From the UHGV virus genome UHGV-1366990: 64,000 nt of DNA; one strand, given 5' to 3'. The notes under the pieces were generated by a model. That model saw only the letters and a program-made list of their open reading frames with translations. It was not told where the DNA came from and made no database searches. Positions 6,097 through 63,960 of this stretch are shown piece by piece. Source of the DNA: a virus. Numbering within the stretch: the stretch's first letter is position 1; the number at the start of each line of letters is the position of its first letter. Made by a program: the position numbers and the translations under genes.

Positions 6097-6176
6097 TCAA
6101 TCTCCAGCCTGATGCTATAATGTGTGGGCGGGGCGTTCCCCGCCTATTTGAAATGATTCTTCTACACGAGGCTGAA

Positions 6177-7622: not shown

Positions 7623-8087
7623 ATGGCGCGTAATACGCTAGACATATTGAATATTTCAGCAGTCAACGATGAGGCCAGCATCGTTGATTGTATGGTTGAA
7701 GTTCAATTGAACCAAGATCGGCCAGGTATATTCCTGGGGATCAAGGAAACACTGAGTCGAATTGGGGTAAACACGCGCCAAGAGCCGAATACTCTGTATC
7801 AGACTTGCCATATTCTTCATAAGTGTGGTAAGTATTATATCGTCCACTTTAAGCATCTATTTATGCTGGACGGGCATTACAACGGATTTAACCGCGAAGA
7901 TGTCCTGAGGATGAACCGAATCATCAAGCTGCTGGAGCAGTGGAACATGGTGAAGGTCATTCATCCTGAGCAGGTCACCGAAGCAGCCGATATGTCTCGC
8001 ATTAAAGTGGTTAAACACGATCAGGTTCCTGAATGGAAGCTGGTTCCAAAATACATCATCCGGCCTACAAAGGCAAAAAGCGAATAA
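7623..8087 (+). CDS. regA: RegA-like translational repressor
   Basis: LYQTCHILHKCGKYYIVHFKHL and EWKLVPKYII closely match T4 RegA. Confidence 0.85.
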   Translation: MARNTLDILNISAVNDEASIVDCMVEVQLNQDRPGIFLGIKETLSRIGVNTRQEPNTLYQTCHILHKCGKYYIVHFKHLFMLDGHYNGFNREDVLRMNRIIKLLEQWNMVKVIHPEQVTEAADMSRIKVVKHDQVPEWKLVPKYIIRPTKAKSE

Positions 8088-8976: not shown

Positions 8977-9044
8977 GATATACAGTTATTCACTAAACAA
9001 CAGAGGCTATAATGGCCTCTGTTTTCGTATTCTAAGAGGATACC

Positions 9045-14056: not shown

Positions 14057-14087
14057 CTGAATTATCAAAGTCCTTCAATAACAATAA

Positions 14088-17332: not shown

Positions 17333-17383
17333 TCAATAACTGGCGAACGATGGGTTCACCGGGTTGAAAGGTAAGATTATATC

Positions 17384-17623
17384 ATGAAGAACAAAATGGT
17401 CGAAACTTCAGTAGAGATTGATCGCAATTGGGGATTGCTCCGCGCTAAAGGGTTCCGCCGTGTGTATGCGACCAAAGAAGTCTACGCACAGCGTCGTGAC
17501 GTTATCATCAGCAAGAAAGGCAAAGAGTGGGTTGCTGAAGAAGTTGATGTCGAGACAGGCATCGTAGGAAAGGTAAAGGCCAAGGCCGCGATCCTCTTCG
17601 CTCTTCTGAAGCACATCAGTTAA
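17384..17623 (+). CDS. Hypothetical small basic protein
   Basis: 79-aa ORF downstream of TTTACT-N17-TATTAT promoter. Confidence 0.55.
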   Translation: MKNKMVETSVEIDRNWGLLRAKGFRRVYATKEVYAQRRDVIISKKGKEWVAEEVDVETGIVGKVKAKAAILFALLKHIS

Positions 17624-17682
17624 TTCTATAACTTTGGGCGGGGTATGATTACCCCGTCTATTTGAAACCAAGAGACTATATC

Positions 17683-18057
17683 ATGAAAAAGTTAATCCTC
17701 GCTGTTGCCCTGCTGGGCGCTTCCTTTGCTGCTGTTTCCGCCCCTCCTGTCATCACCGGAGTGTCTACCAACGGTGTTTATGCTTTCAAGGCGTATGGCC
17801 AAGACCTCGTTCTGTATAAGAACGGGAAGATGATTGAGCGCTGCGTATCAGACGACGTGAATCGTGGGATCGACAATCAGGGTAGCCCATACGTCCTGGA
17901 CATCTATTCCTGCTCCAACGGGACGAAGTCCTTTGGCGTCAAGACCTTTGGCAACGTCGCCGACGGTGGCTGGGGCTTCATGTTCGAAACCCGCAACCAC
18001 CACCCGGTCAAGACCATGCAAGAAGAGTTCTTGATCTCTGTCGGGGGTACGTTATGA
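17683..18057 (+). CDS. Secreted protein with N-terminal signal peptide
   Basis: MKKLILAVALLGASFAAVSA signal peptide; internal ATG of ORF 17662..18057. Confidence 0.65.
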   Translation: MKKLILAVALLGASFAAVSAPPVITGVSTNGVYAFKAYGQDLVLYKNGKMIERCVSDDVNRGIDNQGSPYVLDIYSCSNGTKSFGVKTFGNVADGGWGFMFETRNHHPVKTMQEEFLISVGGTL

Positions 18058-20114: not shown

Positions 20115-20981
20115 ATGCTCCTGACCAAAACAATCGCTGCGGCGATTATCGAAAAGAATAAGGCTTTTGCCCCCAACGCAGCCAAAGTTATGTTGGTACA
20201 CGAAGACGCTCGCGTGATCTTCGCCGAGAAGTTCGAGATGGGTGCGAAGTTCTGGTATGCCGACAACTTACGTGAGAGCAAACTTCAGGGTATCATCCAC
20301 AAACTGACTCTGGTCGCCAAGCGTAATGACCAGGGTGACTGGGTCGGCGTTTCTGACTTCAGTACGAAGATCACCCCAAAGGCTCCGCTTTCTCGTCAAG
20401 AGCGCATTCTGGAAGCCCAGGAAAAGCTGCGTGCGGCTCGGAGTACCACAAAGGCGAAACCAGATACAAGCCCTGTCATCAAGCCAGCGGTTGTTCCTAA
20501 GTCCAAATACCTCCCACCCGTGAGTCAAAAGGCTGTGGAGCAATTGGTTGAGAAGCGCAAGGGTGACGTTGTGATGAAGTCTGACTCTTCAGTGGAGCCG
20601 TTCAAGCCGGATCCAGCAGAAGTACAGGCGCTGGCAGAAAAGGTAAAGAATTCACAATTCATTTCCCTGCGTGAACTTGAACCGCCTACTCGCCGTCGTA
20701 TCGCCAACGAGCTGTTTGTGTCGTTCAGGTCGGATGGTAAGATCATCCTGTGCAAAGCCCTGCGCGATGCAATCCCTTGGACAACTCTGAACATGATGGT
20801 CACTCGCGACTTCAAGCGTTTTGGTATCATGCAAGGCAAGGACTACAACGTCAACCAGAGCGGGACTTATGTTAATCGCGCCATGTGTGACAAACTGACC
20901 TTCCCAGAAGATACCGGAACGATCCGTGTCGTTCTGAATTGGGACGACAAGCTGAACATGTATGTTGGCGATTTCCAATAA
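20115..20981 (+). CDS. Hypothetical protein
   Basis: 289-aa ORF (ATG at 20115 after GTG at 20112). Confidence 0.6.
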   Translation: MLLTKTIAAAIIEKNKAFAPNAAKVMLVHEDARVIFAEKFEMGAKFWYADNLRESKLQGIIHKLTLVAKRNDQGDWVGVSDFSTKITPKAPLSRQERILEAQEKLRAARSTTKAKPDTSPVIKPAVVPKSKYLPPVSQKAVEQLVEKRKGDVVMKSDSSVEPFKPDPAEVQALAEKVKNSQFISLRELEPPTRRRIANELFVSFRSDGKIILCKALRDAIPWTTLNMMVTRDFKRFGIMQGKDYNVNQSGTYVNRAMCDKLTFPEDTGTIRVVLNWDDKLNMYVGDFQ

Positions 20982-20992
20982 TCAATAACCTC

Positions 20993-21024
20993 GGGCGGCT
21001 TATCATAAAGCTGCCCTTTCATTT
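20993..21024 (+). terminator. Possible terminator hairpin
   Basis: GGGCGGC..GCTGCCC stem (one G-U pair) followed by TTTCATTT. Confidence 0.4.
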
Positions 21025-21037
21025 GAGAGACTATATC

Positions 21038-21700
21038 ATGGAAAAACTTTATTCTATTATCGTCGGTCCTGATCCTGACGGATTATTCTTCGCCCCGTTG
21101 TCTTATATTGCCCACGCCCGTATCGGTAGCCATTACGCATATTGCACACGTGGCCACGACGGTTCCAATATCCTCCATTATAACCGCATGAACGATTTCC
21201 TGGCACTTCAACCAGAAGATGTTGTGCTGGCGCGTCGCGTGTTCATCGACTTCAACGCTATGCACAACAACGAAATTGACGCTCGCTATCATGCCATGCG
21301 TTCTATGGAAGGGGGAGACTGCATTTATCGCATCGACCATTTTAGTGAGTTTACCGAATGTATTGATTGGTTCGTTTCAGAAAAGACGTTGGGTGAAAGA
21401 ATCGTCACAACTCCGTGGGCGCATGCGGAACAACTTCGTGTGTCTACCGATGCGTACAAAGAAGTCGACAATCTGTGCAACAAGTTCCGCATCTCGGTGA
21501 CCTGTAATCAAGACCTGGGCGAAGAGATACAATGGACAGCTGAGTCTCCTCATTTCAGTGGCCTGGTGATGACGGCCGAAACCCGTTCCCGTGCTGTTGT
21601 CCAGTTAGTACTCTGGGCGTTCTACCAGCGCACCCCGTTCTCATACATGGGACAGAAAGAGATTGATGAACTCCTGAAGTCTCACGCGGTGGAGGTGTAA
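21038..21700 (+). CDS. Hypothetical protein
   Basis: Internal ATG (MEKLYS) of ORF 20939..21700, preceded by GAGAGACTATATC leader. Confidence 0.6.
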   Translation: MEKLYSIIVGPDPDGLFFAPLSYIAHARIGSHYAYCTRGHDGSNILHYNRMNDFLALQPEDVVLARRVFIDFNAMHNNEIDARYHAMRSMEGGDCIYRIDHFSEFTECIDWFVSEKTLGERIVTTPWAHAEQLRVSTDAYKEVDNLCNKFRISVTCNQDLGEEIQWTAESPHFSGLVMTAETRSRAVVQLVLWAFYQRTPFSYMGQKEIDELLKSHAVEV

Positions 21701-22546: not shown

Positions 22547-22598
22547 TTCTATCTGACGCGCGGCCAGACTCTGCAATACAGGGCATGGCAAAAGAGAA

Positions 22599-22626
22599 AG
22601 CCGGAGTACAATGCTCCGGCTTTTTC
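22599..22626 (+). terminator. Rho-independent terminator after HU gene
   Basis: GCCGGAG/CTCCGGC stem followed by TTTTT. Confidence 0.6.
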
Positions 22627-41584: not shown

Positions 41585-41667
41585 GTAACTCGCCAACCCT
41601 CCCCGCCGCCTTCAATCTACGAGGGCGGCGTATAATAAAACCTGCGTAAACAAACCCGAGGAACACC

Positions 41668-51005: not shown

Positions 51006-51050
51006 GTAAATAGCCCATACACCAATGAAACTTCGTTATGGGCTATTTAC
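51006..51050 (+). promoter_or_regulatory. Perfect 14-bp inverted repeat (17-nt loop) abutting start codon of resolvase-like gene
   Basis: GTAAATAGCCCATA ... TATGGGCTATTTAC then ATG at 51051. Confidence 0.6.
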
Positions 51051-51641
51051 ATGAAATATTGCGGAATCGACTACTCCTATGGCTGTCCATCCCTGTGCTT
51101 CTGGGATGACAAAGACCCTCTTGATTTTGATCATCTGCGCTTCTACGCATATTATACTGTGGAGAAGTACTGTACTCAGATTCGTCAGAACATCCTTATT
51201 ATGAAGCAACCGAAGTGGGAGACCCCAGAAGAACGCTTCTATAATATCTGTAAATGGGCTGAGGCTGTCCTGTTGACTGAGAAGCCGGATGCGATCACTC
51301 TTGAAGGGTATGCTATGGGCAACTCTAAGAACTCCAACAACATATGCCAGACCGCAGAGAATACCTCACTGTTGAAGCAAGCCCTGCGCCGTAACAATTT
51401 CGACTTCCAGATCGTAACGCCATCACACGTGAAGAAGATGTTCACCGACAAGGGCAACGCGGATAAACACGCCATGATCGCTCACTTCGAGTCACTGTTC
51501 AATGTTAGCATGCGCGGTATAATGGATATGTTGGAAGTTAAGGATCCTAAGCCAATCGATGACCTCGTGGATTCGTTTGCGATAATGGCTTGTGGCTCTT
51601 ACTTCATTGAGAATAATCCAGACTTCAACAGAGGTGTATAA
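51051..51641 (+). CDS. Putative RuvC-like Holliday junction resolvase
   Basis: MKYCGIDYSYG, DAITLEGY, ADKHAMIAH, DSFAIMACG resemble the carboxylate motifs of RuvC-family resolvases (by-eye). Confidence 0.55.
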   Translation: MKYCGIDYSYGCPSLCFWDDKDPLDFDHLRFYAYYTVEKYCTQIRQNILIMKQPKWETPEERFYNICKWAEAVLLTEKPDAITLEGYAMGNSKNSNNICQTAENTSLLKQALRRNNFDFQIVTPSHVKKMFTDKGNADKHAMIAHFESLFNVSMRGIMDMLEVKDPKPIDDLVDSFAIMACGSYFIENNPDFNRGV

Positions 51642-52184: not shown

Positions 52185-52422
52185 CGAAAAACAGCCAGCG
52201 CTTGTGATGACACCAGAATTATTTTCTGAAATCGTCCTACTACGCGCCGCCCAAACCAAGGATAGTATCCTTGAGACTCTGGCAGCTGTCTGTGAAGAGA
52301 ACGACATAGACGAGACCAAAGTCAAAAAGATGATTACAGCACCATTGTTGTCACGACTGACAGCTGAGTGCTCCGATGCGCGCCTGATCAAAGACGCGCT
52401 AAAGTCCAAGAAATTAGTGTAG
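52177..52422 (+). CDS. Hypothetical protein
   Basis: 81-aa ORF. Confidence 0.5.
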   Translation: MSDEKQPALVMTPELFSEIVLLRAAQTKDSILETLAAVCEENDIDETKVKKMITAPLLSRLTAECSDARLIKDALKSKKLV

Positions 52423-52429
52423 GTCTATT

Positions 52430-52669
52430 ATGAGCAAAGAATCAATTTACAGCGCAATGAAAGCCTCCGAGTTCCTTCCTGGCTCTATGCGCTGGCGTGT
52501 GGGTAGCCTGAACGAGCATGCCGACCAGACGGATCGTATTCGTTACGTTACCCCTGATGGTCGCTCATACGTCGTTGAGTATCACACGCACGACGAAGGC
52601 AAGAAGACGTTTTCGGACGTGTTCGACATTATTGAAATTGACCCAGCAAATCAAGTGCTTAAAGGTTAA
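52430..52669 (+). CDS. Hypothetical protein
   Basis: 79-aa ORF. Confidence 0.5.
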   Translation: MSKESIYSAMKASEFLPGSMRWRVGSLNEHADQTDRIRYVTPDGRSYVVEYHTHDEGKKTFSDVFDIIEIDPANQVLKG

Positions 52670-52768
52670 TTCAATATAAGATCGGGGTATAATTACCCCG
52701 CTTTGTAGAAAACTGAAAATACATGTAACAGAATAGCCCTGAGGGGCGGAAACAGAGGAAATTAAGAA

Positions 52769-53785
52769 ATGGGTAATTTATTCGATCGTCTGAAAGCGTC
52801 CCGTGGCCAGCAAACTGAAGCTATGCAGGCGCGTCTTGCACAGCAAGGCCAGAAGTCCGGTTTCCAGAAGGATCCTCGCATCTGGAAATGGACTTGGAAT
52901 AAAGATGGTATCTCCGAGAACATCATCCGCTTCCTGCCAGTCCCGCTGGTAGACCTCAAGGCACAGGAAGAAGGGACGATCGATAAAGATCAGATCCTCA
53001 CCCCTTGTGCCATGATCATGAAACATCAGTTCCAGGGACCTGGTGGATGGTACATTGAGAACTCACCTCAGACGTTCGGCAACGACGATCCGGTGCGCGA
53101 CCATGACCGTCCGCTGTGGGCGCAGCAGAAAGAAACGAACGACGAAAAGCTGAAGGACATCCTGAAGAAACGTCTACCCGACACCAAATACTACGCTAAC
53201 ATTCTGGTGATCAAAGATGTCAACGTACCGGAAAACAACGGCAAGGTCTTCCTGCTGGAATTTGGTAACGCCATCAAGAAAATCCTGGATCAGGCGCAGA
53301 ATCCTAAGTTCCCAACCGACCCTAAATTCGATCCGTTTGATCTGTGGGAAGGTGCCAACCTGAACCTGAAGCTCTTTGGCGAGCAGAAGAAGTTTGGGAA
53401 CTGGGAAGGTCTGGTGGCAAACTTCAGTAAGGTGGTGTGGGAGAACCCTGCCCCGCTGAGTGATGACGAAGCGTATATGGAAGACGTCTGGTCTCGCGAG
53501 CACAGCCTGTTTGAATTCTTCAATCCGGCTAACTTCAAAGACTACGACTCCCTGGAAAAGCGCCTGCGCAAAGTTCTGGCAATCCCTGATGACCAACCTC
53601 TGGTTGAAGGTGGTGCAGCCACGATGGCTCATGCTCCTAGCACCCAGACTACACATCAGCCAACTGCTCAAGACAGCCTGAAACAGCAACAGGCCGCGCC
53701 GTCGCAGGCTCAGACTCAGTCTCAACCGAATGCCAGAAACACGGCTTCCATTGACGAATTCGAGCAGTATCTCAAGTCTAACTGA
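52769..53785 (+). CDS. 32: Single-stranded DNA-binding protein (gp32-like)
   Basis: YANILVIKDVNVPENNGKVFLLEFG and NPAPLSDDEAYM match T4 gp32; acidic C-terminus. Confidence 0.85.
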   Translation: MGNLFDRLKASRGQQTEAMQARLAQQGQKSGFQKDPRIWKWTWNKDGISENIIRFLPVPLVDLKAQEEGTIDKDQILTPCAMIMKHQFQGPGGWYIENSPQTFGNDDPVRDHDRPLWAQQKETNDEKLKDILKKRLPDTKYYANILVIKDVNVPENNGKVFLLEFGNAIKKILDQAQNPKFPTDPKFDPFDLWEGANLNLKLFGEQKKFGNWEGLVANFSKVVWENPAPLSDDEAYMEDVWSREHSLFEFFNPANFKDYDSLEKRLRKVLAIPDDQPLVEGGAATMAHAPSTQTTHQPTAQDSLKQQQAAPSQAQTQSQPNARNTASIDEFEQYLKSN

Positions 53786-53791
53786 TCAACA

Positions 53792-53818
53792 AGCCATCTT
53801 CGGATGGCTTTTTATTTT
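53792..53818 (+). terminator. Rho-independent terminator after gene 32
   Basis: AGCCATC/GATGGCT stem followed by TTTTATTTT. Confidence 0.65.
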
Positions 53819-57648: not shown

Positions 57649-57723
57649 ATTTAAGTTCAGAAACTGTTCAATAGATGAAGGGGTTGCTATAATAGCAGCT
57701 CCTTTTGTTTATCGGAGCAGTTT

Positions 57724-63900: not shown

Positions 63901-63928
63901 TTCAATAAAGCGGGTCATAGGGTATAAT
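63901..63928 (+). promoter_or_regulatory. Promoter TTCAAT-N16-TATAAT
   Basis: Perfect -10, 33 nt upstream of ATG 63961. Confidence 0.5.
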
Positions 63929-63960
63929 TCTATGATCTGAATATAAACCAGGAGCACATC

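Follow-up and report, generated by a model that had tools for sequence, protein, structure and literature searches.

A hairpin upstream of phage gene 32 as a candidate composite of a family signature promoter and a terminator-like stem

In the stretch of DNA analysed here, 64,000 nucleotides of UHGV virus genome UHGV-1366990 (hereafter the window), an inverted repeat at 52683–52700 lies on the border between an upstream unit that includes gp33 and a 79-aa ORF, and gene 32. This repeat is probably a composite transcription signal, in which a promoter of known type overlaps a catalogued terminator-like stem. At the DNA level, the TATAAT in its loop and a TTCAAT box 12 bp upstream would form a short-spacer version of the signature promoter of the Ackermannviridae, from which RNA polymerase would begin at ~52700, on the final base of the 3' arm. 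Since transcription would start there, a gene 32 mRNA made from the hairpin promoter would lack the hairpin. In RNA arriving from upstream both arms would be present and would pair (~-13 kcal/mol), marking the 3' end of the upstream unit. A twin of the repeat at 17639–17656 would be a cassette of the same kind. The data show the sequence features together with how far they are conserved and enriched; from these we infer that the promoter is active, where it starts and whether termination occurs.

Results

The phage and the gene 32 locus

Over the locus, identity is 99% with Escherichia phages LHE287 and A221, 98–99% when phage AV101 is included, and 92–94% with Shigella phage AG3 and Salmonella phage SKML-39, and we assign the window to an Agtrevirus-like phage of the Ackermannviridae. 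The gene 3' of the hairpin (52769–53785, plus strand) belongs to the gp32 family (Pfam PF08804, E 1e-56) and is annotated in relatives as an ssDNA-binding protein; direct reading finds a Shine-Dalgarno-like AGAGGA at 52754–52759 (plus strand), ~10 nt 5' of its ATG. The upstream unit consists, in order, of genes for a membrane protein, a zinc-ribbon protein and gp33 and of the 79-aa ORF (52430–52669, plus strand), the final gene of the unit, whose stop codon occupies 52667–52669. Between the convergent gp32 and gp54 genes, at 53791–53818, lies a terminator-like hairpin followed by a T run (AAGCCATC/ttcg/GATGGCTT; no strand assigned), and the LIMEstone1 record has a terminator annotated at the equivalent place.

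A perfect hairpin with TATAAT across its loop

As the first-pass annotation had described, direct reading finds a perfect hairpin 5' of gp32, with the arms CGGGGTA (52683–52689) and TACCCCG (52694–52700) around the loop TAAT (52690–52693), and a TATAAT that spans inner stem and loop at 52688–52693, all on the plus strand. The TATAAT is our candidate -10 hexamer; the 5' arm would lie within the promoter spacer and the 3' arm would be the discriminator. The hairpin is situated 13 nt past the stop of the 79-aa ORF and 68 nt short of the gp32 ATG at 52769. Its stem of 7 bp, 5 of them G-C pairs, has a predicted energy of -12.7 to -13.9 kcal/mol, and as an RNA fold (-13.9 kcal/mol, z -3.9) it was matched in stability by 0 of 200 shuffles. 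The 16-mer GGGGTANNATTACCCC has two sites only in the window, this hairpin and the twin, and with up to 2 mismatches it gives 4 matches on both strands against 0.16 expected.

A search of 52300–53000 against Rfam at permissive thresholds returned noise only, the top match being to a mammalian lncRNA model (E 0.04). An exact-pattern scan of IMG/VR for GGGGTATNATTACCCC yielded 94 stretches, a count that has no chance baseline, mostly in unrelated contigs, and these stretches gave no sign of a mobile element. We rejected a long-range helix in the minimum-free-energy fold of 52670–52790 (CUUUGU/ACAGAG; AAUUACCC with GGGUAAUU at the start codon), which was not significant (z -1.5), was dropped by RNAalifold and is missing in Taipeivirus. 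The complementarity of AAUUACCC (52691–52698, loop and 3' arm) to GGGUAAUU (52771–52778, gp32 codons 1–3) is only partly kept in Kuttervirus and absent from Taipeivirus, and is therefore probably due to chance.

The hexamer and its upstream box match a family motif

Direct reading places the TTCAAT box of the candidate gene 32 promoter at 52670–52675 (plus strand), 12 bp before the -10 hexamer. Eleven instances of a bipartite pattern, TCAAT-N11-17-TAYRAT, are present in the window where 0.87 would be expected, a number reached by 0 of 100 shuffles, and 9 of the 11 are on the gene-sense strand. The same pattern is found 9 times in 50 kb of Bue1 (0.54 expected) and shows no enrichment in one Vibrio phage. 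The consensus of 22 instances is TTCAAT-N14-TATAAT, with the box exactly TTCAAT in 17 of them and a spacer that ranges from 12 to 16 with a mode of 14. On the plus strand of the window, 10 of 24 TATAAT copies fall in the non-coding 9.5%.

The first description of TTCAAT[N14]TATAAT was reportedly given in the 2012 proposal of the genus 'Viunalikevirus'. It has been published as a 'unique regulatory motif' of the Ackermannviridae (PMC7283392). Like this motif, the gp32 copy combines TTCAAT with a perfect TATAAT, both on the sense strand and with the hexamer 81 nt before the gp32 start; it differs from it in a spacer of 12 bp (12–14 in relatives) rather than 14, and in the GC hairpin that its spacer and discriminator form in addition. 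A 14-bp spacer, the canonical length, is seen in other copies in the window. As its spacer is 12 bp, the gp32 copy is missed by exact-motif searches such as that of PMC7283392, and it is not among the promoter annotations of AG3 or LIMEstone1. A generic sigma-70 scan called no promoter at the gp32 hairpin because the -35 match is too weak. Given the usual gap of 6–8 nt after a -10 hexamer, the gene 32 transcript would start at about 52700–52702, the end of the 3' arm. Literature searches returned no usable transcript maps for the Ackermannviridae.

A second copy bears on the upstream unit. Within the RuvC gene, a TTCAAT-N14-TATAAT at 51498–51523 (plus strand) is conserved in LIMEstone1 and Bue1, and one EspM4VN motif position given in PMC7283392 maps to it. 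This motif could be a promoter for the membrane-protein/zinc-ribbon/gp33/79-aa-ORF unit, feeding the transcript that enters the hairpin.

Elsewhere in the window, within 6097–6150, a TCAAT-N14-TATAAT stops 5 nt before the terminator-like hairpin GGCGGGG/cgtt/CCCCGCC/tatttg, and a predicted transcript from it would start with that hairpin. In the LIMEstone1 record (HE600015), minus-strand terminator features are apparently ~25 nt off the actual hairpins, and promoter features are in register.

The hexamer and box are better conserved than the stem

We aligned the leaders of seven phages of four genera and one unclassified Yersinia phage, and the invariant block in this alignment was GTATAATTAC, not the stem. 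In nine aligned leaders (Agtrevirus-like, Limestonevirus, Kuttervirus, Taipeivirus and relatives) the hexamer is invariant as GTATAATTA; between genera the invariant core is GTATAATTA(C), and the outer stem is variable or lost. TATAAT is found 5' of gp32 in Agtrevirus, Limestonevirus, Kuttervirus, Taipeivirus, related Serratia phages and Erwinia phage Bue1, as well as in 2 of 3 Vibrio phages and one metagenome contig. It is accompanied by a TCAAT-type box 12–14 bp upstream in Agtrevirus, Limestonevirus, Kuttervirus, Taipeivirus, Bue1 and Vibrio phage K364, and near variants, with TCATT as the box or TATAGT as the hexamer, occur in Vibrio phages K368 and D508 and the metagenome contig. A TCAAT-type box at this distance is kept in nearly all gp32 leaders compared. 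The exceptions to TATAAT are the MAM1-like phages, which have TATAAATA, Vibrio phage D508 with its TATAGT, and a relative of 48% identity that has neither. A metagenome scan for gp32 relatives added three further loci only.

The arms differ by lineage: CGGGGTA/TACCCCG in Agtrevirus and Limestonevirus, GCGGGGGTA/TACTCCCGC in Taipeivirus, GCGGGAT/ATCCCGC in Bue1, GGGGTAT/ATGCCCC in Vibrio phages and GCGGGTATA/TATATCCGC in MAM1-like phages. In these five lineages the local fold reaches -11 to -18 kcal/mol, better than nearly all arm-shuffled controls; Kuttervirus, D508 and the metagenome contig have a weak stem or none. Since Kuttervirus keeps TATAAT, the box and the rest of the leader at gp32 with a decayed stem, the hairpin appears dispensable. 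In nine leaders that have a hairpin axis in common, 86.7% of cells paired, with a covariation score not above that of slid controls. We therefore take the pairing to be maintained in most lineages, with formal covariation weak and not proven. Where Menlow, MAM1-like and Vibrio phages have a wobble pair, it is G-U in the sense RNA and would be an A-C mismatch on the antisense strand; this direction, the same in 3 of 3 lineages having one, argues for pairing at the RNA level, in the sense transcript.

Two lineages show local rearrangements. MAM1-like Serratia phages have, ~90 nt 5' of the gp32 ATG, a perfect T4 late box TATAAATA in a hairpin and not TATAAT, which hints at a possible change of promoter class at this position. 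Vibrio phage D508 carries an inserted HNH endonuclease gene that separates gp32 from the small ORF following gp33; it has lost the GC stem and retains the TCAAT box, a 14-bp spacer and TATAGT.

The stem as a catalogued putative terminator

The same stem appears in Table S2 of AG3 (PMC3121705) as the putative rho-independent terminator Torf075 (-11.7 kcal/mol), identical in sequence (cggggtataattaccccgctttgt) and in the same place 3' of the 79-aa ORF. It has the form expected of an intrinsic-terminator stem, that is, a GC-rich stem-loop 13 nt past the stop codon of a co-oriented gene. The AG3 table treats the stem as a terminator only. The U tract here is weak and unconserved between genera: the tail after the stem, CTTTGTAG, makes a poor U tract, and the post-stem sequence is CUUUGUAG in the window, with 4 U in 8, and CUGUAAAU, CUGUGAAA, UACAAAC or AUAGUAAC in other genera. 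A plus-strand terminator scan reported the stem after gp32 and not that at 52683–52700. Because the U tract is poor and unconserved, we rate the stem as a weak terminator, or else as one that protects a 3' end; termination at it may be weak or absent.

The twin at 17639 is a cassette found before different genes

Direct reading also confirmed the near-identical hairpin that had been reported at 17639–17656 (plus strand), CGGGGTA/TGAT/TACCCCG, 26 nt 5' of the ATG at 17683. The ORF at 17683, labelled a secreted-protein gene in the first-pass annotation, starts with MKKLILAVALLGASFAAVSA, which is signal-peptide-like by eye, and has no Pfam match. The twin hairpin can be extended to 17635–17660 and is followed by TCTATTTG; its fold (-18.8 kcal/mol, z -5.0) was equalled by 0 of 200 shuffles. 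The GTTAATTC flank and the hairpin are common to the twin and the gp32 copy, and a promoter-like motif, TTCTAT-N14-TATGAT, can be read directly at 17624–17649 (plus strand). In AG3 the twin ortholog is listed as terminator Torf138 (PMC3121705) and has co-varying arms, with a compensatory change from G-C to A-T. The twin is annotated as a terminator in LIMEstone1, and an IMG/VR pattern scan found it kept in Kuttervirus.

Homology with Kuttervirus ends just after the twin. Since the cassette precedes at least four different genes between phages (the secreted protein, DenV and two others), we read it as marking a gene-swap junction. At the gp32 copy, synteny is conserved among relatives and there is no gene-content breakpoint. 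The conserved tail ending GAGACTATATCATG is common to the twin and an element at 20993; the two cassettes, at 17609–17685 and 20975–21040, each have a TCAATAA-type box, a hairpin with TATnAT in its loop and this tail. A translation-start context, G(A/G)(G/A)ACTATATCATG, recurs at 17373, 17672, 21027, 32128, 45748 and 55566 (6 against 0.43 expected).

Hairpins with a -10-like hexamer in the loop recur

The window holds seven GC-rich loop-hexamer hairpins, at 8999, 14086, 17639, 22597, 52683, 57678 and 63913, with the hexamer on the sense strand in 7 of 7. The hexamer is TATAAT at 8999, 52683, 57678 and 63913, TATATT at 14086, TATGAT at 17639 and TACAAT at 22597. Across four genomes, terminator-like hairpins with a -10-like loop hexamer number 16 against 4.3 expected, and those with exactly TATAAT number 5 against 0.45. 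The element at 8999–9023 (plus strand; AACAGAGGC/tataatg/GCCTCTGTT/ttcg), with TATAAT in the loop and a T run, is identical in AG3. At 57678–57704 (plus strand), before a tk-like gene, a TATAAT-loop hairpin is accompanied by a T run and, 15 bp upstream, by a TTCAAT box; in AG3 Table S2 the element is entered both as promoter Porf067 and as terminator Torf069 (PMC3121705). TTCAAT, TATAAT and the T run of this element are kept, with different arms, in AG3, LIMEstone1 (where the hexamer is TATTAT) and Bue1. The hairpin at 63913–63937 (plus strand) has GGTATAATT in its loop and a TTCAAT box 16 bp upstream, and its LIMEstone1 ortholog shows a compensatory A-T to G-C change in the stem with the loop unchanged.

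At 22597–22623 the loop reads TACAATG, against CATTGTA at AG3 74388–74413, with identical stems; such a loop inversion between close relatives implies that some of the loop '-10s' are incidental. At 14086 a second TCAAT-N13-TATAAT follows directly after the element, and other promoters in the window lie just before or just after hairpins. Taken with the inversion, these cases indicate that a -10 in the loop is one among several tight packings and not a rule. Nothing could be drawn from a ranking of TATAAT against its 20 letter permutations at the centres of hairpins, which was confounded by the use of both strands and by overlapping hexamers.

The leader differs from the T4 gene 32 operator

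The first-pass annotation had likened the region to the T4 gene 32 leader, with about 65 nt of A/U-rich sequence after a 5' structure. The length holds (~68 nt), and the composition is better called A- and purine-rich, at 44% A, 62% A+U and 69% purine. The part at 52701–52735 (plus strand), which includes a conserved AAAATAC (52716–52722), is A-rich and predicted to be unstructured, and from the predicted start the leader folds no better than shuffles (z +0.87). RNAalifold on the leaders gave a sole consensus structure, a 4-bp hairpin GCCC/TGAG/GGGC at 52736–52747, with only 21 nt between it and the gp32 ATG and the leader otherwise unstructured overall. This hairpin belongs to a second conserved leader element at 52728–52749 (plus strand), composed of ACAGAATA, GCCC (52736–52739), TGAG, GGGC (52744–52747) and GG. 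In four genera neither the ACAGAATA flank nor the stem varies, and the loop does; a compensatory C-G to G-C change occurs in MAM1-like phages, which, like Bue1, have the element in duplicate. More distant phages have a different small hairpin in its place. We regard the second element as the gene 32-specific feature. Its AATAGCCC matches the tail of the published late motif CTAAATAcCcc, and the element may act in RNA or be a late promoter of variant form.

In T4, the gene 32 operator consists of a ~28-nt H-type pseudoknot at its 5' end, a neighbouring tract of >40 nt, 3' of it, that has less structure and includes the ribosome site, and UUAAA/UAAA repeats, and both pseudoknot and repeats are essential (PMC535899). 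Like it, the window has a gp32-family gene downstream of an A-rich and largely unstructured leader that includes the ribosome site. Unlike it, the leader is 62% A+U against 81–89% in T4, and has the conserved 4-bp hairpin 21 nt before the ATG. We searched the leaders of four Ackermannviridae genera exhaustively for interleaved helices of ≥4 bp and found no pseudoknot; by chance, 41% of shuffles have one. As a positive control, the same script recovered the T4 pseudoknot (UGCC/GGUA and GCUAUGA/UCAUAGC). UUAAA and UAAA, which T4 has 3 and 4 times, are both absent from the leader in the window. These results suggest that the T4 operator, as pseudoknot plus UUAAA repeats, is not conserved in the Ackermannviridae. 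Of the proposed T4-like layout, the gp32 gene downstream and the A-rich, predicted-unstructured leader find support; the role of the TATAAT hairpin as the 5' structure that nucleates gp32 binding does not.

In AG3, a RegA-like translation repressor is annotated at 91078–91542. By synteny, we guess that the 154-aa ORF at 7623–8087 of the window is its ortholog and as such another possible post-transcriptional regulator.

Weighing the alternative readings

The reading carried over from T4 holds that the hairpin is a structured 5' element of the gene 32 mRNA that nucleates cooperative gp32 binding on the A-rich leader and represses translation. The gene and the unstructured leader just described fit it, read-through RNA from upstream would include the hairpin, and phage RB49 reportedly lacks the pseudoknot yet has A/U repeats, so operators can diverge (PMC535899). 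We nevertheless consider it very improbable: the predicted start lies 3' of the hairpin, Kuttervirus lost the stem and kept the rest of the leader, near-identical or analogous hairpins stand before unrelated genes, and neither a pseudoknot, by the script that recovers that of T4, nor a single UUAAA or UAAA is present. It is quite unlikely, if less so, that the stem is a terminator or 3'-end stabiliser and nothing more, with the loop TATAAT incidental and gene 32 read from upstream promoters or from a start lower in the leader. AG3 does list the stem solely as a terminator, and LIMEstone1 does the same for the twin and annotates no promoter in its gp32 leader; the 22597 loop hexamer is unconserved in AG3, and a 12-bp spacer is short. 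Yet TATAAT and the TCAAT box are kept in stem-less Kuttervirus and in very distant genera, the bipartite motif is strongly enriched, and the U tract is poor and unconserved.

We give a similarly small chance to the hexamer being part of a late (gp55/gp33-type) promoter variant and not of a sigma-70-type promoter, TATAATTACCCC resembling the family late motif CTAAATAcCcc. The comparison of ATAATTACCCC with CTAAATACCCC leaves 2 mismatches, but two-mismatch matches are common by chance (18 against 8.9 expected). The gp33 gene is nearby and MAM1-like phages have the perfect T4 late box TATAAATA at the site, inside a hairpin, but in all other genera the TAAATA core is altered and the sigma-70 hexamer perfect; moreover, the TTCAAT box belongs to another motif class and the twin carries TATGAT. 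A 7-4-7 palindrome over a promoter, present in two near-identical genome copies and with small putative regulators encoded just upstream, also recalls a DNA operator for a dimeric phage regulator covering the -10 hexamer, or an extruded DNA hairpin. We rejected a palindromic operator, and hold this reading to be scarcely probable, on the grounds that G-T arm positions break the symmetry in three lineages, that the axis shifts by 0.5–1.5 nt relative to TATAAT between genera, and that the two sites do not co-vary, Kuttervirus keeping the twin with a decayed gp32 copy. The composite of signature promoter and terminator-like stem is the reading that we carry forward.

Discussion

The composite signal that we propose can be compared with known arrangements. 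In T4, the lysozyme, soc, gene 49 and I-TevI genes have a late promoter within a hairpin, and the hairpin hides the ribosome site. The gp32 element resembles these in having its promoter in a hairpin, so that its own transcript would lack the 5' arm and read-through RNA would fold; it differs in that its hairpin, at 68 nt from the ATG, is clear of the ribosome site. A closer counterpart of the T4 arrangement is found at the RuvC gene, where a strong hairpin at 51006–51050 (-20.9 kcal/mol, z -4.7) contains a late-promoter-like GTAAATAGCCC in its 5' arm, and its 3' arm reaches the RuvC start codon at 51051. This arrangement is kept with changed arms in LIMEstone1 and in Bue1, the latter with a perfect TATAAATA. 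It looks like a switch of the T4 lysozyme type, in which read-through RNA would hide the ribosome site and a late transcript from within the arm would free it, and such a late promoter would show that the logic of starting inside the hairpin is used by these phages.

The element also recalls the PeSL (promoter-early stem-loop) cassettes of T4-like phages (PMC4122927), which combine a sigma-70-like promoter with a stem-loop in short intergenic spaces, in several copies per genome; for the twin the likeness extends to downstream genes that differ between phages and to a conserved ribosome-site/ATG tail. PeSL cassettes, however, have the stem-loop just 5' of their promoter and not, as here, around the -10; they also belong to another phage family, and the gp32 copy is not at a breakpoint. 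Bacterial promoter-coupled terminators (bioRxiv 10.64898/2026.08.19.745784), in which RNA ends no more than 35 bp upstream of a start on the same strand, likewise use one DNA stretch to end one unit and start the next, and the window elements at 41612 and 45668 have their layout of stem, T tract and then -10. In the bacterial elements the stem lies over the -35 and termination occurs ~10 bp before the start, whereas in the gp32 element the -10 is in the loop and the start would fall within the 3' arm or at its end.

The Ackermannviridae have been reported to lack MotA and AsiA, and their early and middle promoters were described in 2011 as unidentified (PMC3184105). A TTCAAT ~14 bp from TATAAT lies at roughly -32 to -27, too close for a normal sigma-70 -35 and at the position of the T4 MotA box. 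It is conceivable, though on balance doubtful, that these motifs are family-specific 'middle-type' promoters that need a phage factor, and that the loop-hexamer hairpins form a class of coupled terminator-promoters in which ending and starting are mechanistically linked, gene 32 being one member.

These findings correct the analogy to the T4 gene 32 operator: self-regulation by gp32 in this phage would need another RNA target, and an operator unlike that of T4. They also place a candidate gene 32 promoter in a known motif class of the family, despite exact-motif searches having missed this copy, and provide a map, open to direct tests, of one border between transcription units in a phage family that has uses in biocontrol and therapy. 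A -10 hexamer set in a terminator-like loop would be a compact design, and one that is relevant to current studies of promoter-terminator coupling in bacteria.
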